Shown here in pieces: positions 545 to 62,229 of a stretch of DNA of 64,000 bases. A program made the translations under genes and the position numbers. Each line of letters begins with the position of its first letter. The stretch's first letter is position 1. The stretch is from assembly GCA_951406725.2 (NCBI GenBank), contig OX597817.1, positions 91,946,001 to 92,010,000 of the forward strand. Reading direction: 5' to 3'. The notes beneath the pieces were generated by a model. The model ran no database searches. It worked only from the letters and a program-made list of their open reading frames with translations, and was not told where the DNA came from. The DNA comes from Octopus vulgaris. Its lineage: Eukaryota.

Positions 545-968
545 ATATATACATACACACGTCCAGACCTCTCATACGTACTAATACTCTCTCATACACA
601 CACACACACTCTTCTCATACACACACACACACTCTTATGTTGGAGCAAGGTCATTTAACCCTATTATCTCCCCTAATTTCGCTCTTGCGTCTCACGTTTG
701 ATCTTTGACTTCTGGCCGAAATCAGATCGCCATGTTGATTCATTAGCCTCTGCACGCATATTTTTTCTCTCCTTCTTTCTGTGTTTTTTCTCTGTGTATC
801 TTTCTGTTGAAGAGCGTAGGCTCGAAACGTTAAAGACTTGTTTTATTTATATTTCCTGAGTGCCATACTAATACAATTGTTTGTTTGTATTCCACCTGCC
901 TTCATCTTTTGTTTATTTCCGTAAACCTGCCTTCGTCTTTTGTCTATTTTCATAAAGCTTCCCGTTAT
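545..968 (+). mobile_element. Penelope-like pseudo-LTR / non-autonomous element, family P1 (carries hammerhead motif)
   Basis: Close second copy at about 11850-12300. Both end in CTTCCCGTT followed by (TA)n and both contain the same hammerhead-like motif. This copy has an extra 31-nt tandem duplication near 895-957. Confidence 0.65.
799..836 (+). ncRNA. Minimal type I hammerhead ribozyme motif, A6U core variant
   Basis: TCTTT-CTGTTGAA-GAGC(GTAG)GCTC-GAAAC-GTT-AAAGA: stem I TCTTT/AAAGA, 4-bp stem II, palindromic AACGTT stem III, GUU triplet. Confidence 0.6.
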
Positions 969-2833: not shown

Positions 2834-2984
2834 ATAACGTTTTTTTTTTTATAGCACCTATTATCAAAATATCCAACGAAATTTCATCATAGCTCTTAGC
2901 ACCGGCATCTGAAATTTTGAGTCCTATTATGGCAACTTACTGATAGTCCTATACTATACATACATATATGTGTGTGCGTGTAAG

Positions 2985-3432: not shown

Positions 3433-5882
3433 TCATCATCATCGTTTAACGTCCGTTCTCCATGCTAGCATGGGTTGGATGGTTCGACCGGGGATCTGGG
3501 AAGCCAGAAGGCTGCACCAGGCTCCAGTCTTATCTGGCAGTGTTTCTACAGCTGGATGCCCTTCCTAACGCCAACCACTCCGTGAGTGTAGTGGGTGCTT
3601 TTTACGTTCCACCTGCACAGGTGCCAGGCGAGGCTGGCAACGGCCACGGACGGATTGGTGCATTTTACGTGCCACCGGCACAGAAGCCAGTCGAGGCGGC
3701 ACTGGCATCAGCCACAATTCGGATGGTGCTTTTTACGTGCCACCGGCACGGAAGCCAGTCGAGGCGGCGCTGGCATCAGCCATGATTCGGATAGTGCTTT
3801 TTACGTACCACCAGTCCAGGGGTCCTGGCATCTGCCGGGTGCCAGTCATAGGATTGGTTCAATTTTGATTCCGATTTCGATTTCACTTGCCCCAACAGGT
3901 CTTCGCAAGCAAAGGGGGGTAGGCATGGATGCCTGTCATTGGATGAGGTTCAATATCGACTTCGCTTGCCTCAACAGGTCTTTGTGTGTCCAAGGGAGGA
4001 AAGGCATGCATAAGTGGGCTGGACTCACTTGTCCTGCCTGGTCTTCTCACGCACAGCATATTTCCAAAGGTCTTGATCACTGGTTATTTCCTCAGTGAGG
4101 CCTAAAGTTCGAAGGTCGTGCTTCACCACCTCGTCCCAGGTTTTCCTGAGTCTACCTCTTCCACGGGTTCCCTCAACTGCTAGGGATTGGCACTTTTTCA
4201 CACACCTATCTTCATCCATTCTCGCCACATGACCATACCAGCGCAATCGTCTCTCTTGCACACCACAACTGATGCTTCTTAGGTCCAACATTTCTCTCAA
4301 GGTACTAACGCTCTGTCGAGTATGCACACTGACATTACACATCCATCGGAGCATACTGGCTTCATTCCTCGTGAGCTTACGCATGTCCTCAGCAGTCACA
4401 GCCCATGTTTCACTGCCATGTAGCATGGCTGTTCGTACATATGCATCATACAGTCTGCCTTTTACTCTGAGAGAGAGGCCTTTAGTCATGAGCAGAGGTA
4501 AGAGCTCCCTGAACGTTGCCCAGGCTATTCTTACTCTAGCAGTTACACTTTCAGCGCAACCCCCCACCCCACTACTGACTTGGTCACCTAGATAACGGAA
4601 GCTATCAACTACTTCTAGTTTTTCCCCCTGGAAAGTAACGGTAGTTGTTTTCTGCAGATTTTTAGAGTTTATTGCTCCTGAGCATCTGCCACATACAAAA
4701 ACTATCTTCCCAGTTAACCTTCCTTTGACATTGCTGCACCTCTTATGTGTCCATAGCTTACACTAGGTACATCTTATAGAGTTTCTACCTACACCTTTTC
4801 TACAGATCGAGCAGGGCCATCTTCCTGAAGATATTTGTGGTTTGTCTACCTTTCTACTTATTAGTACTTTGGTTGTAGCTAGGTTGACTCTAAGGCCCCT
4901 CGATTCTAATCCCTCCTTCCACACCTGGAACTTCTCCTCCAGTTCTGATAGTGACTCAGCAATTAGAGCAAGGTCGTCAGCATAGAGGAGCTCCCAGGGT
5001 CAACCTGTCTTGAATTCCTCCGTTATTGCCTGGAGGACTATGATAAATAGGAGGGGGCTGAGGACTGAACCCTGGTGGACCCCAACCTCTACTTTGAATT
5101 CTTCTGTGTACATGTTGCCAACCCTAACCTTACTTACGGCATCCCTGTACATGGCTTGCACAGCTCTCACCAGCCATTCATCTATCCCTAGTTTCCTCAT
5201 TGACCACCAGGTAAGGGATCGGGGGACCCTGTCAAAGGCTTTCTCCATGTCAACGAAAGCCAGGTACAGGGGCTTATCTTTGGCTAGGTATTTCTCCTGC
5301 AGCTGTCTCACCAGAAATATGGAATCAGTGGTGCTTTTCCCTGGCATGAAACCAAACTGCATCTCATCCAAGCTGACTCTTTCCTTAATCAGTTGGGCTA
5401 TGACCCTCTCTGTAACCTTCATTACCTGATCCAACAGCTTGATACCTCTGTAATTATTTGTATCTAGGGCATCTCCTTTACCTTTGTAGCAGTTGACTAT
5501 TATGCAGCTACACCAGTCATTGGGTATGACTCCTTCGTGTATCACCTCATTAACTATACGGGTGACTAGGTTATAGCCGACACGGCCAGATATTTTGAGC
5601 ATCTCTGCAGTAATTCCTCATGGGCCTTGGTCTTTCCCTGTCTTCATGCTTCTAATTGCCTTAACTACCAAAGAATTGTCAACTCGGATGGCTGGTCCCT
5701 CTGTTGGGTTGACATTCGGCAGACTCTCTTTATCCCATTCATTTTCTTTATTCAGCAACCTTTCATAGTGGCATCTCCAAACCTCTCTCTTTGCATCCTC
5801 ATTTAGCGCAAGTGAACCATCATCCATGCGGACACATTTCTCTCCTACCACATCACGATTCTCTCTCACACACTGTCTTGCA
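3433..5882 (-). mobile_element. 5'-truncated RTE-clade LINE (reverse transcriptase, disrupted)
   Basis: ORF pieces 5618-5869, 5000-5602 (NYRGIKLL, FVDMEKAFD, GVHQGSVLSPLLF), LYADDL near 4970-4990 and 4025-4567 (LHGSETW, RLRWYGHV). (ATG)n tail at about 3433. Confidence 0.93.
3592..3835. repeat. Four tandem units of about 63-68 bp in the RTE 3' UTR
   Basis: GGTGC(T/A)TTTTACGT recurs at about 3594, 3657, 3725 and 3793 with similar flanks. Confidence 0.8.
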
Positions 5883-11849: not shown

Positions 11850-12505
11850 CCCTATACATACACACGTCCAGACCCCTCATACGCACTTATACTCTCTCAT
11901 ACACACACACACACACTTATACATACTAATACGTACTAATACATACTAATACATACTAATACATACACCAACCCCATACATACGCCTGTCCAGACCTATC
12001 CTAGGGTCATTCAACCCTATTATCAACCCTATTATCTCCCCTTATTTCGCTCTCGCGTCTCATGTTTGATCTTTGACCTCTGGCTGAAATCAGATTGCCA
12101 TGTTGATTCGTTAGTTACTGCATGCATTTTTTTTCTTACTGTGTTTTTTTTCTCTCTGTGTATCTTTCTGTTGAAGAGCGTAGGCTCGAAACGTTAAAGA
12201 CTTGTTTTATTTATATTTCCTGAGCGCCATACAAATACAATTGTTTGTTTGTTTTCCACCTGCCTTCGTCTTTTGTCTATTTTCATAAAGCTTCCCGTTA
12301 TATATATATATATATATATCGCCATGATAGATCGTTAGCCACTACACACATATTTTTCTCTCCTTGTTTTTTTCTGTGTCCCTTTCTGTAGAAGAGCGTA
12401 GGCTCAAAACGTAAAAGACATTTTCTATTCCTGAGCGTTGTACTAATACATCTGTTTGTTTACTACACCACCTGTCTTTGTCTTTTGTTTTTTTTCGTAA
12501 ACTCT

Positions 12506-12510
<5 letters not shown>
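11850..12510 (+). mobile_element. Penelope-like pseudo-LTR family P1 copy plus a tandem related subfamily copy
   Basis: 11850-12300 matches 545-968. 12320-12510 is a diverged relative ending in (TA)n. Hammerhead motifs at 12163-12200 and 12382-12417. Confidence 0.65.
12163..12200 (+). ncRNA. Minimal hammerhead motif, A6U variant (identical to 799-836)
   Basis: TCTTTCTGTTGAAGAGCGTAGGCTCGAAACGTTAAAGA. Confidence 0.6.
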
Positions 12511-12539
<29 letters not shown>

Positions 12540-12869: not shown

Positions 12870-13876
12870 TATATATATATATATATATAAACTGAGAATG
12901 TGTGTCTGTCTGTCTGTCTGTGTGTTTCCCTAAAACTTGAGAACTACACAACCAATTTCATTCAAATTTTACACATGCCTTACTTAGGGCCCATGTAGTT
13001 TCATGGGCAAAAAAATGTTCAACTTCTTGCCTAAGGCGAGACCATCGCAATATCATATCTTCTCCACTATTTCAGTATTATGTGTTAAAAGTGAAACAAA
13101 AACATTTCTCTATTTTATGTCAGATACTTTCACTTTAACAATAAAAATTAGAGATAATAATAACAATTGAATTATATGTAGTAAGTAATAATTAAAATCA
13201 AACTAAAATATAAAATAATCGTAACATAACAAAAGTAAAAATAGCAATTGGTATAAAATTGCATCAATGACTTGAACTTGAATAAGTGGTTTCACATGAA
13301 TGGGAATAAATTGAAAATAAAATTAATGCGCAGAAATGGAATAGTCTATTAAATTAAAGAAAAGACTATTGTCTATAAAGTATACAATGTAGTGAAAAAA
13401 AAAATTTGAACACCTGAAGGAAAGCACCATCGAAAAGTGTCTTGGTGCAACTATGAAAGATATCAAGTATCTAACCAGAGGCGGTAAATTTGCCACAATA
13501 GAAGCAAGGTTCGAGTCAACGGAGCGTGCAAGGGAGTACTTGACTGGAACCTTGCAAAGTGGAAATATTTTATTTTTACCTTTATATCTGGGACATAGGA
13601 CGACCCAGATAAAAATTTAAAATGTCCCCCCAGCAGTAAAGGTAGGCTGGATTGTAGCCACACTTCTATACAAGAGGGAGGACAAGATACAATTGATCGA
13701 AATTGCAAGAGACGGGCCTACAATTCCAGTCTGTTATATATTTTGAGTATTGTTATCACTAGCGATATCAAGATATAACTTTGTATTTTGTATTTTATGT
13801 GTAGATGAACACATATATATACACATATATACATGCACTAGCACTATGACCCGGCAACGCCGGGTCATAATACTAG
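12870..13876 (+). mobile_element. Non-autonomous Helitron, family H3, carrying a captured coding fragment
   Basis: 5' TATATAAACTGAGAATGTGTGTCTGTCTG, 3' palindromic hairpin plus CTAG-T. A longer copy lies inverted at 40611-42346. Confidence 0.75.
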
Positions 13877-24697: not shown

Positions 24698-24810
24698 GTT
24701 TACAGCCATATCACATTGAAAATGCTGGTTCTCATCTAAAGTTAAGCAACGTTGAGCCCAGTTAGCACTTAAGTGGGTGATTACTTGGGAAATCTAGGTA
24801 CTGTAAACAT
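24698..24810 (+). pseudogene. 5S rRNA pseudogene
   Basis: GTTTACAGCCATATCACATTGAAAATGCTGGTTCTCATC...AAGTTAAGCAACGTTGAGCCCAGTTAGCACTT...TGGGTGA...TGGGAA...GGTACTGTAAAC follows invertebrate 5S rRNA, with CpG decay and a short deletion. Confidence 0.85.
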
Positions 24811-28755: not shown

Positions 28756-29009
28756 TTAGTTTGTTTCAAGGTGGCGAACTGGCATAATCATTAGCATACC
28801 AGACAAAACGCCCAGTAGCATTTCATCTGTCTGTATGTGCAGTGATAAAATTTGGCCAAGATCAACTTTGTCTTTCATCCTTCTGGAGTCAATAAAATAA
28901 GTACCAGTTGAGCAATGGGGTTGATGCAATTGACTTAACCCCTCCCCTGAAATTGCTGGCCTTGTGTAAAAATTTGAAATCATCATCATCATTATTATTA
29001 TTATTATAT

Positions 29010-40610: not shown

Positions 40611-42346
40611 CTAGCATTATGACCCATCATTGCCGGGTCATAGTGCTAGTGCATATATATATATATGTGTGTACATATTACATGTACATCTATATATATA
40701 CATCTACACATAAAATAAAAATACAAAGTTATATCTTGATATCGCTAGTGATAACAATACTCAAAATATATAACAGACTGGAATTGTAGGCCCGTCTCTT
40801 GCAATTTCGATCAATTGTATCTTGTCCTCCCTCTTGTACAGAAGTGTGGCTACAATCCAGCCTACCATTACTTCTGGTGGGACATTTTAAATTTCTATCC
40901 GGGACGTCCTATGTCCCAGATATAAAGGTAAAAGTAAAATATTTCCACTTTGCAAGGTTCCAGTCGAGTACTCCCTTGCACGCTCCGTTGACTCGAACCT
41001 TGCTTCTATTGTGGCAAATTTACCACCTCTGGTTAGATATCTTTCATAGTCGCACCAAGACACTTTTCGATGGTGCTTTCCTCCAGGTGTTCAAATCATT
41101 TTTTTCTCTACATTGTATACTTTATAGACAATAGTCTTTTCTTTAATTTAATTTTTTATTTCGTTTGGTGGTGTTATCCTAGATTCACCGTCTTTGTTGG
41201 TGATCAATCTGAAATAGGTTTGTATTTCTTCCATTTTAATTTTAATGAGTTCCACCGACAGCTGCAGCGAAATTCATTTTTGGACTTACTTCTATCGAAG
41301 GCATTCTAACAAAAATACTTCCATGTAAACGGTGAAAATATTGTCAATTTCCCCAAACAGGGACACAATTCAATTTTTAAACAATAACCAAAGCTCCTTC
41401 TCCCAAAGGGGGAGGGTTACAATTTACAATTATTTAACAAATGCAACACAACAACGTTTCCCTTACGAGGAACCAACAAATGTGATAGCAATAGTTAAAC
41501 AGTAATAATAATAACAACAAACCTTATGGTGAATCAAAATGCAGTATGCAGTTAAAGCTATAGTCCTTTATGTATAAGAAATAAACCAACAGCAGTACTC
41601 AGTAGAAGCGGCTGTTTGAGAAAACAGACATTACATACAGCCAAACTTCATATAGATACTTAATGCTAGCTAATTAGCAGATAATCTAATGTAAAAGCCA
41701 TGGTAAACAGTATGTGCACACCTCCATCTGGACTATTCCATTTTTGCATGCTAATTTTATTTTTAATTTATTCCCATTCATGTGAAACCACTTATTCAAG
41801 TTCAAGTCATTGATGCAATTTTATACCAATTGCTATTTTTACTTTTGTTATGTTACAATTATATTATACTTTAGTTTGATTTTAATTATTACTTACTACA
41901 TATAATTCAATTGCTATTATTATCTCTAATTTTTATTGTTAAAGTGAAAGTATCTGACATAAAATAAAGAAATGTTTTTGTTTCACTTTTAACACATAAT
42001 ACTGAAATAGTGGAGAAGATATGATATTGCTATGGGCTCACCCTAGGCAAGAAGTTGAACATTTTTTTGCCTATGAAACTACATGGACCCTAAGTAAGGC
42101 ATGTGTAAAATTTGAATGAAATTGGTTGTGTAGTTATCAAGTTTTAGGGAATCGTAGTGGAGAAGATATGATATCGCTGTGGGCTCGCCCTAGGCAAAAA
42201 GTTAAAAAATTTTTTTGCCAATGACACTCCCCGGACCCTAAGTAAGGCATGTGTAAAATTTGAAATTGGTTGTGTAGTTCTCAAGTTTTAGGGAAACAGA
42301 CAGACAGACAGACAGACGCACATTCTCAGTTTTATATATAGAGAGA
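40611..42346 (-). mobile_element. Non-autonomous Helitron, family H3 (long form)
   Basis: TC...CTAG ends in an A|T site. Homologous to 12870-13876, with about 570 bp extra (41160-41730) and a duplicated subterminal block. Confidence 0.8.
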
Positions 42347-46961: not shown

Positions 46962-47825
46962 AGGTGGTGAGTTGGCAGAATCATTACCATGCTGGACAAA
47001 ATCCTCAGCCACATTTCCTCTGAGTTTGTGTTTTGAGTTCAAGTGCCACAGGGATGACTTTGATTTTCATTCATTCAGGGTCAATAAAATAAGTACCAGT
47101 TGAGCATTGGAGTTGATGTAATTGACTTAACCCTTCCCCCGAAACTGCTAAGCTTGTGCCAAAATTTTAAATTTGAAAATTTGATTAAGATGGCAAGTTG
47201 GCAAGATCAACAGTATTTCTTCCTACACTTTACTTTGAGTGCAAATTCTGCTGAGGTCAGCTTTGCCTTTTATCCTTTTGGGGTTAATAAAATAAGTGTC
47301 AGTCCAGCACTGGTTTCAATATAATCAACTCACTCCTCCTACAGACATTGTTGATTTTGTATCAAAGTTTGAAACCATGTAAGGTGGAAAGTTGGCAGAA
47401 TTATTAGCTCAACAGCACTTCTTCCAGCTTTTGCATTGTAAGTTCATATTCCAACAAGGCTGACAATGTCTTTCATCTTTTTGAGGGAAATAAATTAAAT
47501 ACTAGCCCATTAGTGAGGTCAATGTAATTAACTTGTCTGCTTTCCTCAAACTAACAGGCCTTGTGTCAAAATTTGAAACTATTATTATTGTTATTATAAT
47601 TATCATTATTAAGGCAGCAAGCTGGCAGAATCATTAACATATCAGGCAAAATGCTTAGTGGAATTTCATCTGTCCTTACGTTCTGTATTCAAATTCTGTT
47701 GAGGATGACTTTGCCATTTATCCTTTTGGGGTTGATAAATTAAGTGCCATTTGAGTACTGAGTTCAATGTAATCAATTATCTCTCTCCTCCAAATTTCAG
47801 GCTTTGTGCCTATAAGTAGAAAAGA
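46962..47825 (+). repeat. Tandem cluster of four SINEs, family S2
   Basis: Repeated GCTGGCAGAATCATTA...GAGTTCAAAT...CTTTCATCCTTTTGGGGT..ATAAAATAAGTACC units. A well-preserved copy lies at 50808-51037 (-). Confidence 0.75.
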
Positions 47826-51636: not shown

Positions 51637-52284
51637 TACACACATGTATGTATGTGTGTGTAACCTATGAAGTAGATATATAAGCATCTCCTTAAAAATG
51701 ATAAACTACATTAATCAATTTTTTAATCTTACTGGGTTTTCACACACACCAGCCTCAATCTCACACCCCCATGAACCAACACTTGGTGAATTTCCTTGTT
51801 TATAGCTTATGCTTACACTCACTAAATACACACATCGACACCAACCTCCCCATGCTCACTACCAAGCATGTACACACACTGACATTTGCACTGCCACACC
51901 CATCTGCCTCCTGTTTTGACTCTCACCCTCACAGAACAATTTTTATCTTGTTACCTCCCTACAATTAATTTTTTTCTTTACATTCATTTTCCTTTTTCTC
52001 TTTCACATACAGACACACACACATGCTCTCTGTTGCTCCTTCAACTTTTCATTCTGAAAGACCAATGTCTGAAACATCAAGACATTCAGTATTCACTTCT
52101 AGCATCAAATTAATGCCAGATATATCATACTTTGTTCTTTCTGTGTTGTATTTTTTACTGTTTTTTTTTTTTTGTTTTTCTTGTTTTGTTTTTTTTTTGT
52201 TTTTTACATTGCAATATATAATGAATTAAAGAATATTCTACATTTATATTGAGTTCTGTAATTTATCACTTCTGGTGAATCAAC

Positions 52285-52339
<55 letters not shown>

Positions 52340-52541
52340 ATCATCATCATCATTTAACATCTGTTGTCTATGTTGGCATGGGTTGGATGGTGTGATCAGA
52401 GCTGGCAAGCTGTGTGGGGGTGGGCTGCACCAGACTCCTGTCTGGTTTGGTATGGTTTCTACAGATGGATGTTTTTACATAGCACCACACAGGTGCTTTT
52501 ACACACATGCACATAAGTATATCTTTCTGCTATATTTTCAG

Positions 52542-52641
52542 GTACCTCAATCTCAAATAAAGGATGCTGGCTCCATTTTGTCCACTTTGAAGTCTCACAA
52601 AAATAGAGTAAATTGTGTAAAATGGATGAAAACAAGAAAAG
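52542..52641 (+). CDS. ELP2: ELP2 exon 2
   Basis: TTTCAG acceptor, VPQSQIKDAGSILSTLKSHKNRVNCVKWMKTRK (WD40 H..RVNC..W), GTTTGT donor, phase 0 to 1. Confidence 0.88.
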
Positions 52642-54268
52642 GTTTGTTATTATTTTGTTCAACTGTTTTGGAATGATTAGTTACCAACATCAGAATTCTC
52701 TTTGTCAGAAAACGCAGGTCATACCAGATATATGATCAAAAGCAATCAAACAATGACTATCCCATCTTTTTTCAGCTATTAGAGACTGGATCACATTGTT
52801 CAATGTATCCTTTTATGTGATGGTAGGTATGGTTTGAGGGAGATTTGGCTTCTGTTTCCAGCAGGTTGAGCAACCAAGCAGAGCTGCGACATGGAATTCC
52901 TCACCCACAATTAAATGTGAAACTACCTGCTAACAGTTTCTATAAACCCATATAAAATACAGTTCCAGCCTTAAGACCCTAACATTTATTTATGTTACAT
53001 ATGAATTTGTAAAATTAAAGATTTATTATGTTTTCAGTATCGATGTACCCCACTCCTGGCTTTTTATGTCCTTGCAAGTAAACTGGTTCTAAAAATTGTT
53101 GTCTATTCCTTGTACAAAGAATCTCTCACTAATTCCAGTATGGTTCCTAATAGATGTTGGATGCACAAATAAATTAAGCTAATTCTAGATCTTAGTGATG
53201 ATCTTACCATATTTTTACAAGTACAACTGAATGGAAGGCCACTCTAGTGGGAAAGCTAAGGCTATGGAATCTGCCAATCTTTGATTTGTAGATCAACTTT
53301 GCAGAATGTAAGATTTTGTCCCTCTTCATTGATCAGATGTCTTCAAGAGAGTCAGTTATGTGTCACCAGTTTTTGCTTCATTCTTTGAAGATGGGTCTTT
53401 GTATGTCTTTGAGAAATTGAATAAACCAAACTTAGCTATATCCTTGCCAAGTTTGGTATCATGAAATAATCAAACCCTCTGGTCCTCTAGTTTCAAGTTT
53501 TTAGCTTATTTATTTTTATGGAAAATTTTACTTATCATCCCTCATCTGAGGCCTGGCTTGTCAAAACTTTTGAAAAGTTTCTTCTATCTAAGCATTCAAG
53601 ATCACCAGCTTAGATTCAGGCCCCTACATTCTACAACTTCAGCAGTCATGCAATTCTCAACAACTTTTGCAATTAGATTTGAGTAGAAGACAAATACTTC
53701 GCACAGGACAGTTAATGATATAGTTGACCATTGTACAGGGTGGGGCATAAAGATCTCCCACATTTGGAGGAGGCACCGTGTGGACTTAAGTAGAACTAGA
53801 GAGGTGGGACAGGTTTCATTTGGAAGGCTAAGGTCTACTATTTTTTGTATTCATCATTAATTGCTTTCTTTTTTAGAACCCATGATAATTTGGAATGTAT
53901 GGCAACTTAGGCAAGTGTCTTCTACTATAGCCTTGGGCCAACCAAAGCCTGGTGGGTGGATTTGGTAGACTGAAACTGAAAGAAGCCTTTTGTGTGTGTG
54001 CCTTTGTCTTGATATTATGTAATAGTTGTAAATGAGTATTACCACCATATAATGTTGTTAACTTTCAATATTCCACGGAAAACATGGTCATGAGGAAATA
54101 TTTTCTTGCTTAGAAAGAGGTTAGGTTTCACTCCTGGAAGGGCATTTTGCTGTAGAAAAGCTGACTCAATAAATTCCGTCTGATGTCATGCAAACAGAAA
54201 ATAGATGCTAAACTATGGTGATGATGTGTGATTATATTACTTGTTAAATTTGTTCCATCTATCATCAG

Positions 54269-59335: not shown

Positions 59336-60170
59336 CCCAGTTATTTTTAACTCAAGATAAGCTATACGAGTTATCTCCCTTAGACCATTTCCATAGATAA
59401 TTTCGCCTCCACTTCATTTATATTTTAGTCAATAGTCTGTCTGTCATATTTTAATATAAATGAAATAAAACTTTACAGATAGACCGAGATTAGAATTTTA
59501 TTGTTCCAGTTTCTTTCCTGCTATAGAATTTTTTCTCTGTCAATTCTTATTAATATTAATGAAAATATATTTGCATATATATTACCTTTTTATCATCTGC
59601 TTTCATTTTTCACTCTGAATGAAAATTCATATAATTCTGTCTTTTGTGCAGGTTTAAATTTCCTATGTTTTTTGAATTTATTTTTATTAATATTTATTTA
59701 AAAATTTTTCTTGTTACTAAATCATGATGATGATGACCAGCATTGTTGTTGTCAATTTTTTCATCATTCGTCACTCATTTCTATGTATTCAAGACATCTG
59801 TTGTTTCATCTAGCTATCTTACCACAAAGTTTTCTTTTATCTACCCTCATCTTTTCTCTCTCAGTAAATGGAGCTTTTTATTTGGTTAGTTGACCTGCTA
59901 GAAATAGCATCCAAATCCCCCAAACAAACCCTATTGTCCTGAAAAGACAGTGAATAATATAGTATAGGCTTAGTATTTTGAAAACAAGTGACAGATTGTT
60001 CATGATTCGAATATTTTTTAATCATTGGCCTGCTTATTTGGAGCCAACTTAAGGTTATACATCAACAACAGTCTTTAATTCTAAAAATACTATCTGCATG
60101 TTTCAGCTATGCACTCTCATTTATCCTTAGCCACATTAAATATTTAGCATTCAACATACTTACATTTCAG

Positions 60171-60354
60171 TTCCAGTGTTCCCAAATTCTGGCTGGGCAC
60201 GATGGTGCTATTACAACTTTGGATAATATAGAAATTGAAGATTTGGATTTTGAACCAAAATCTGAAGTAACTGAATCTCCTTCAATCCATAACCTCATTG
60301 TAACCTCATCTGTAGATTCTACCATTAAAATTTGGCACCGGTTTAATTCTGAAG
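60171..60354 (+). CDS. ELP2: ELP2 exon 4
   Basis: TTTCAG acceptor, FQCSQILAGHDGAITTLD...LIVTSSVDSTIKIWHRFNSE (WD40 GH...SS.DS.IKIW), GTAAGC donor, phase 0 to 1. Confidence 0.9.
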
Positions 60355-62229
60355 GTAAGCACCTGTCTCTATATCTTTTGCATCATTCTGATTGTTTAGG
60401 TGAGCCACAGATGTTCTTAGAATATTAATATTCTACCTGAAGGAGACTATTTTCATATTGAGTCACTAGCATCATTGACTCTCCATAGCCAAATCCCTTT
60501 TATCTGTAAGTAGGTACTATAATATATGAAATGGGTCATTACTGCAAGCAGTGGCAACACTTTGAAACTGATGCAAGTTTCTATGTTGTATAGTACTAAG
60601 TTGAAGTATTATTTTCACTTTTATTCTTATCAAATGCAATAAACTGTAACATGGTCCTATGTTTAGTTTTAACCAAGTTACTCAAATTGATTCACACTGT
60701 TGTGACCAATTATTTGTGAATAAAATAAACCTCAGCCTTATATCTAACATCCTTTCAGTTCCATCAGATTATATACAGGGACCGTATTGTCCTCTATCAG
60801 CTCCTTTCATTCTCTTTCCAGCTTGTTCTTTTGTATTCATTCATTTTTATTTGGTATAGGTGTGTTATTTATACCTGTTTCCTCATTCTTCAGATGTTTT
60901 CCTCTTCTAGACATGTTTTAATCAGTCTTTCTTACTTTATCATGTTGCCTATATTCCTAATATATCTCCCAAGTTATTAAGTAATTGTATACTTTCCTCC
61001 TTACAATTAAGCATACAAATACCTCATGGTTGTATTTTGAGTTTGTCACTGTATTTCTGTAGTGTGTGTTTATGTATACATATCTAATTTAGTAAAGTTT
61101 GTAGTTGACTATGAAATCTAGAAACTGATTTCCTGTTGTATCAACAACATATGGAAATAAAGAGAAAAGCCAAGGAGGTAATTTCTTGTTACCTTAGCAA
61201 GAAGGGATTGTAACATAGCTCCATTAAGATGTATGAGAAAGATACTGGGTAGGTGTCTGTTTGAAATTCTCAGGTAAAAAGTAAATGGCTCACTATCAGT
61301 TTTGATGATGAGTATTCACTTGTTTGATTAACTGAATTACCTGCTCATTCAGTTAGCATGTAAGTGGCTGAGTGTTTCACAAGCACTTGTATCATCATCA
61401 TCAATTTACATGTTTTCCATCCTGTCATGGGTTAGATGAGTCGTCATGGTCTGAGCTGTTTCTTTTGGGAGCTACAACTCAGTAAAAGTCTGTCACTTGT
61501 ATATTTCATTTGCTCTTGGTTTTTCTAGATGGATGCCCTTCCTATCACCAACCACTTTACGCAATGTACTGGGTGTATTTTCTTGTCGCACTAACACCAT
61601 AGTATTCAGTGACATAAAGTCTGTAAACTGAGGAGCAGAATAGGAGAATAATAACAGCAGAAATGGGTGGTTGAGAGGTAGAGATATGAGTGTAGAGAAT
61701 ATTCATTAGTGCATTTGCATTTGCTCGGGTGACCTTAGAGGTGGCCGGAGGGGTGGAGTATATGAGAGAAAGGGAACAAGACCTGAGATAGAGCAGATGG
61801 GTAAAAATGTGGAAAGAACAAGAATATAATGTGAAAAGGCAGTGATATTTGAGGGTGATGTCAGGAGAGAAGTGATCAAAGGTAAGAGTCGATGAGATAA
61901 AAAGCAAGAGAAGGTGTTGGCTGGCAATAGATTTGATCCAGGTGAGTGATAATGCTGACTGGTAGTACAACAAGGTGAAGCTAGATTGTATTGGGTAAGG
62001 AGATGAGGGCAGTCCAATACAACCTCATATATGCAAGCTGAGAGAATGGCAAAGAGGTCAAAGTAAAATGAAGTGGATGATGGTGAGTTGACAGAAGGTG
62101 GGCTATGAGTGAGGAAAAGATGGAAGTGATGGGGGGCGGGAGTCAAGTAAGCCATAGGTATACATGAGGGAAGTGAAGGAGCAGCTAAGTAGGTTTGGCA
62201 GGATGCAAGCTTGTCATGATTTCTAAACA

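Follow-up and report, generated by a model that had tools for sequence, protein, structure and literature searches.

Can a hammerhead ribozyme work with a uridine at position 6 of its core, or does such a motif persist as a relic of the element that carries it? The question is raised by three minimal type I hammerhead motifs on the forward strand of a 64,000-nt stretch of the Octopus vulgaris genome (contig OX597817.1; hereafter the window). The initial annotation of this DNA had held that A6 is nearly invariant in hammerheads. This is so, yet a natural A6C hammerhead of low activity has been published (PMC3088659, PMC7151607). Copy 1 (799-836), defined by pattern scan and sequence comparison, is composed of stem I (799-803/832-836), the core segment C3 to A9 (804-810), an extra A (811), stem II (812-815/820-823), G12 to A14 (824-826), a palindromic stem III (827-830) and a U as H17 (831). 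The A inserted after A9 is a usual feature of minimal hammerheads of this type. Copy 2 (12163-12200; N7 at 12172, G12 at 12188, H17 at 12195) is identical to copy 1 in 38 of 38 bases, as had been annotated, and the exact match runs a further 10 nt to the left and 24 nt to the right of the motif, 72 nt in total. Copy 3 (12382-12417) has the U6, the GAGC-GTAG-GCTC stem II, the CTTT/AAAG stem I and the GUA triplet that were ascribed to it. It differs from the other two at N7 (A, 12390), at G12 (A, 12406, in a CpG context), at H17 (A, 12413) and at the outermost base of stem I (12381). Counting from C3 at 804, 12168 and 12386, position 6 is T in the DNA at 807, 12171 and 12389, where the consensus has A. 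A scan of the window with a 19-base pattern, unconstrained at positions 6 and 7 and in loop 2 and tolerant of up to three mismatches, returned exactly these three matches, compared to a mean of 0.01 in shuffled sequences, none of which (0/100) reached three.

The assignment of the copies to two subfamilies is a fair reading of their divergence. With the motif excluded, 16 of 232 aligned bases (6.9%) distinguish copy 1 from copy 2, and copies 2 and 3 are further apart, with differences at 36 of 148 (24%). Position 6 apart, all of them follow the order of a type I three-way junction (stem I-CUGANGA-stem II-GAAA-stem III-NUH-stem I). The core positions C3, U4, G5, G8, A9, G12, A13, A14, A15.1, U16.1 and H17 are complete in copies 1 and 2, while copy 3 carries G12A, a minority allele of the family. 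With U at position 6 in three of three copies, the motif is a variant and not a canonical member of the hammerhead class. Stem I can be extended by two pairs (GU/AC) past a 2-nt bulge (794-838 and 12376-12420); the letters of the bulge differ between the subfamilies, and loop 2 might make its loop 1 contact here.

By its sequence, the motif matches the metazoan consensus of the minimal hammerheads found in the pseudo-LTRs of Penelope-like elements (PLEs; CUGANGAH, G..C stem II, GAAAN-palindrome-NUH) except at position 6. The examples given in the available parts of PMC4209133, including that of the Acropora digitifera Neptune element, share with it the short stem I, the extra nucleotide after A9, the G10.1-C11.1 pair, the 4-bp stem II ending in GCUC with a 4-nt loop, the CG palindrome of stem III (palindromic 15.2-16.2) and the NUH triplet. 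They share also the U-rich flank and the occurrence as dispersed single copies. The difference lies in U6, compared to A6 in 56 of 56 representatives, a count read from the extracted text of Fig S3 for motifs whose descriptor itself required the core, and in the lack here of a linked frame for reverse transcriptase and endonuclease. The only core change of minimal hammerheads reported in those parts of the paper is U3-A8.

Each motif sits in a non-coding, U-rich repeat of ~0.2-0.45 kb that ends in a (TA)n tract. Copy 1 of the repeat occupies 548-965 (U-rich on the forward strand), and its tract 966-986. Copy 2 covers 11853-12298, with the 5' ends of both copies approximate, and a second (TA)n tract (12299-12319) separates it from copy 3 (12321-12508). 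The latter, of the second subfamily, is 5'-truncated, lies head-to-tail behind copy 2 and ends in a third tract (12509-12539). By blastn, copies 1 and 2 align at 548-613 with 11853-11918 (93.9%) and, with gaps, at 657-984 with 12025-12317 (82.9%). The tract at the end of copy 1 is likely the target into which the repeat inserted, and a (TA)n insertion bias is documented for several PLE clades in the portions of 10.1101/2021.04.23.441226 that we used. Because of the architecture of the motif and the (TA)n ends, the repeat likely descends from the terminal part of a Penelope-like retrotransposon. No PLE reading frame or autonomous partner adjoining the three copies was found by Pfam among selected frames, and none of 10 selected window frames (49 frames were listed, and 15 tested overall) gave a GIY-YIG match. 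The upstream part of the repeat was also considered as a remnant of a GIY-YIG C-terminus; the one frame tried did not align to the metagenome locus L056 described below. In terms of retrozyme-type tandems, the window has one monomer and one partial dimer, formed by copies 2 and 3, whose cores are separated by 218 nt. Animal non-LTR retrozymes and non-autonomous PLE derivatives (PMC7229834, bioRxiv 10.64898/2026.07.22.740005, each in part) likewise combine a non-coding unit of 0.2-0.45 kb, one type I hammerhead, and monomers with partial tandems. Their hammerhead is canonical, whereas the one here is minimal with a U6 core and forms no long array in the window.

The window is otherwise repeat-rich animal DNA. 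A broken non-LTR retrotransposon reverse transcriptase lies at 4025-5617 on the reverse strand (RVT_1, E 2e-21 on 5000-5617), and its motifs are, we assume, not Penelope-like. A long dispersed repeat (12926-13789 and 40718-42151, in opposite orientations and 92-97% alike) starts ~400 nt past copy 3 and is probably a young transposon. Another repeat, at 47057-47823 and 28865-28980, has ~203-nt tandem spacing and dispersed copies too. The 5S rRNA-like segment at 24698-24809 (forward strand; 65.2 bits, above the Rfam gathering score, with a short deletion) is likely a pseudogene or a 5S-derived SINE head. A WD40 exon fragment is found at 60006-60428 on the forward strand (E 6e-5) and perhaps another at 52230-52676; from the former, the window probably holds introns of a host WD-repeat gene.

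A canonical hammerhead of a different repeat family was located by descriptor scan at 1083-1143 on the reverse strand. It has the A6 core CUGAUGA, a long stem II and a near-palindromic stem III, and it faces copy 1 from ~250 nt away. A relative at 2839-2969 (forward strand, 84%) has a decayed core. A6 hammerheads thus exist in this genome, and the motif at 1083-1143 serves as an internal control. Rfam reported no hammerhead among its 98 matches in the window, nor among three matches in 700-1300, a negative of little weight because the canonical motif was missed as well.

Is U6 a property of these three copies or of their family? The stretch is present in 20 of the 24 sequencing runs listed, which come from 10 studies and four organisms. 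We aligned the contigs of four runs (32,155, 27,655, 17,156 and 10,542 aligned contigs) to 12020-12520, spanning copies 2 and 3, at a likeness of at least 80%; summed depth was not taken as copy number. At position 6 (12171 and 12389) there was no variant among the 40 listed of 86 variant rows. The neighboring N7 did vary among the listed rows, with T>G at 7.7-9.7% of depth at 12172 in all four runs, and A>G and A>T at 2-7% each at 12390. Since these adjacent alleles are visible while position 6 has no listed row, U6 appears to be family-wide. If the rows are ranked by depth, as they seem to be, an A6 allele is bounded at ~1.8% of depth at 12171 and ~2.9% at 12389. This bound was derived from 23 of the 40 listed rows, namely those in the motif and the weakest (smallest summed depth 221k; the remaining 17 are larger), and contig depth may understate rare alleles. 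The other 46 of the 86 rows include four to six T>A rows per run, which counts against our best reading. An alignment to a 66-nt stretch yielded no variants at all, although alleles at N7 and H17 are known to exist; it was uninformative and was not counted as absence of A6.

The listed rows also document how the rest of the motif varies. H17 carries T>A at 52-86% of depth in the four runs. At 12406 the change is A>G, with G at 70-90% of the depth aligned there. Transitions in CpG context occur within the motif at 12397, 12398, 12410 and 12411. A stem I pair is disrupted by G>T at 12417 (5-16%), and the listed rows contain no matching change in its partner. The annotation had attributed G12A in copy 3 to CpG decay. 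The pooled data support this, with A12 at ~2-8% of depth, a share comparable to that of the CpG transitions in stem III (~2-4%), and this resemblance suggests that most copies decay passively.

For comparison, we scanned metagenomes with positions 6 and 7 left open. Among the 108 loci recovered, position 6 was A in 98, G in four, C in three and T in three. Eighty-seven loci (71 distinct) continue into stem III and the NUH triplet, and every one of them (87/87) has A6; they are mostly of one family and so are not independent. The three loci with T do not continue into stem III and NUH; we took them for chance matches, and no member of the present U6 repeat family is among the 108. The stem II design of the window motif occurs with A6 in the 87 comparators, whose family is one stem II letter off the Acropora digitifera Neptune motif (as printed in Fig S3 of PMC4209133). 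In one of them, L056, a weak GIY-YIG match (E 0.0018, short of the Pfam cutoff) precedes the A6 motif by 98 nt. For many of these metagenome copies (L001-L108; for example L056:201-742, L062 and L068), the start apparently falls immediately 5' of the hammerhead, and in some the core is repeated in inverse orientation right upstream, a layout expected for inverted, 5'-truncated PLE insertions. In viral contigs, the family pattern had no matches and a looser U6 pattern gave 36, none of which (0/36) forms a full hammerhead.

The comparators all have A6 while the listed rows of the family show no A6, which makes decay of single copies an unlikely source of U6. Thus, U6 is likely the majority state of the family, inherited from master copies. 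One could still argue that U6 reflects local decay or a minor lineage within a family whose consensus is A6, given that the evidence against A6 comes from 40 listed of 86 rows of contig depth. U6 is found, however, in three of three copies across a subfamily split of 24%, and with N7 alleles visible at 2-10% of depth a major A6 allele should have appeared among the listed rows. We regard an A6 consensus as very improbable; a major A6 subfamily is unlikely, with room left for scattered A6 copies. A family-wide U6 would, on the sequence evidence, likely add a new core variant to a known class of ribozyme. We found no natural A6U family in the literature text that was searched, including the portions covered of PMC6765202, PMC6962438 and PMC7229834, and a term search of the main text of the 2026 Octopus repeat annotation (PMC13282606) found no mention of hammerheads. 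The initial annotation proposed that the retention of U6 marks a real variant. The proposal stands insofar as U6 is the majority state of the family and not random decay; that the variant functions is not established by this retention, because transposon copies share U6 by descent, whether they cleave or not.

Selection on the motif is weakly suggested by the pattern of variation. Depth on the motif is 5-9x that of the upstream body and 1.2-3.1x that of the downstream peak, and the largest groups of loose contig ends fall at the edges of the motif (12164 and 12203). Many contigs therefore share the motif without sharing the flanks, although indels between the subfamilies contribute to these ends. 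Of the positions from C3 to H17, only N7 and H17 carry non-CpG variants in the listed rows (p 0.056 counted by site and 0.016 by event, both post hoc), and H17 remains non-G among them. In a broader test, the chance that four variable sites all miss 11 core positions out of 38 was p 0.24. Conservation of motif versus flank in pairwise comparisons of the three window copies was not significant (Fisher p 0.14, 0.08 and 0.33). Nor do the stems offer support from covariation: stem II has the same sequence in each of the three copies, and no compensatory pair is found among the listed rows.

Folding predictions point to a specific effect of U6. The predicted pairing of U6 with A15.1 has a probability of 0.98 in copy 1 and 0.82 in copy 3, worth 2.4 and 1.8 kcal/mol, respectively, and the U4-G5-U6/A15.1-C-G helix of which it is part vanishes from the prediction once position 6 is barred from pairing. 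Such a helix is predicted to hide the palindrome in monomers. The natural tandem of copies 2 and 3 can form all the pairs required for a double-hammerhead fold, at -27.8 versus -39.8 kcal/mol for the minimum-energy fold, a cost of 12 kcal/mol; for a homodimer of copy 1 the values are -13.7 and -26.8 kcal/mol. These are nearest-neighbor energies that exclude the tertiary energy of the core.

The biochemical precedents concern related motifs. Published minimal hammerheads are inactive as monomers and weakly active as dimers (PMC4209133). The Poseidon PAc hammerhead of Anolis is likewise of the PLE type and likely poor on its own; it belongs to an autonomous element and needs its protein for activity, whereas the motif here has no linked frame (PMC11167929). 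In that active PLE, catalytic mutants of the hammerhead left insertion in vitro unimpaired, and RNA-seq revealed no ends at the cut site (PMC11167929). Naiads proliferate although a canonical hammerhead was not detected in them (10.1101/2021.04.23.441226, within the portion covered). For a type III hammerhead, single and double mutants of the CUGA turn all had low activity, the C3/G8 swap excepted, with no second-site rescue; the passage gives no value for A6U (PMC9901934). The natural A6C hammerhead of phage Bcep176 is the closest parallel as a natural substitution at position 6. It has C6 at a single phage locus with measured activity (kobs under 0.1 per min, Mn preferred; PMC3088659, PMC7151607), whereas U6 is likely the state of a whole animal repeat family. 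In Table 2 of PMC7151607, the Bcep176_Rev4 primer for the well-cleaving 'C6A' construct, reverse-complemented by eye, reads U6, while the RNA is printed with A6. This may be a misprint or an unintended sign that U6 can function, and we treat it as a lead only.

We favor, at a probability of about one half, a weakened, slow and dimer-dependent U6 ribozyme within a very abundant PLE-derived repeat. The depth tables suggest a single origin of A6U, in a master element prior to the divergence of the subfamilies, followed by spread through descent. Single copies would be held by the predicted U6-A15.1 pairing in an inactive hairpin. By analogy with PLE hammerhead biology, two motifs would pair through the ACGU palindrome so that one core cuts after the GUH of its partner, probably with help from a PLE protein. 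In the natural tandem, the intact core of copy 2 could cut the GUA of copy 3 at 12413, while the G12A core of copy 3 would be dead. Most genomic copies would be decaying passengers, with any selection acting on a few transposing masters. A bolder form of this idea, in which a working A6U hammerhead is fixed in one of the most abundant repeat families of an animal genome and U6 is a lock released by tandem copies or by the Penelope protein, we consider doubtful.

A dead relic, to which we assign clearly less than even odds while considering it a serious possibility, would explain much of the same material. A6U would have inactivated the founder, spread would have continued because cleavage was dispensable, and the motif would have been kept as a signal in RNA structure or protein binding, or simply by descent. 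PLE insertion in vitro needs no cleavage (PMC11167929), which would allow an inactive core to become fixed without penalty. The unhindered insertion of catalytic mutants and the lack of RNA-seq ends at the cut site agree with such a relic, as do the weak CUGA mutants without rescue, the proliferation of Naiads and the predicted preference of U6 for an inactive fold. A relic would, however, be expected to take hits at C3, G5, G8, A9 or A13-A15.1 or to acquire a G at position 17, whereas the listed rows show changes at N7 and H17, and the motif is common to contigs whose flanks diverge. At the other end, U6 might be compensated by dimer geometry, by a contact of the 2-nt stem I bulge with loop 2, by a different metal or by the PLE protein, so that the motif cleaves about as well as with A6. 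We consider such full competence unlikely. The good activity that A6C keeps in Mn, the U6 primer (if not a typo; both PMC7151607) and the protein-assisted nature of the PLE hammerhead (PMC11167929) speak for it; the CUGA mutagenesis (PMC9901934) and the uniform A6 of the 87 comparators of the same architecture and of the 56 published representatives (selected, as noted, with a core-requiring descriptor; PMC4209133) speak against it.

Either outcome would matter for PLE hammerheads. A near-matched natural comparator with A6 and the same stem II exists in motifs of the L056 type. An attenuated U6 switch, if true, would be invisible to all searches based on CUGANGA. If U6 cleaves, the hammerhead core tolerates more than descriptors allow, and these have overlooked a large class of genomic ribozymes. 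Should it prove inactive, the spread of a Penelope-type element to very high copy number will have taken place in the absence of ribozyme cleavage, a natural demonstration that would bear on what the hammerheads of PLEs are for.
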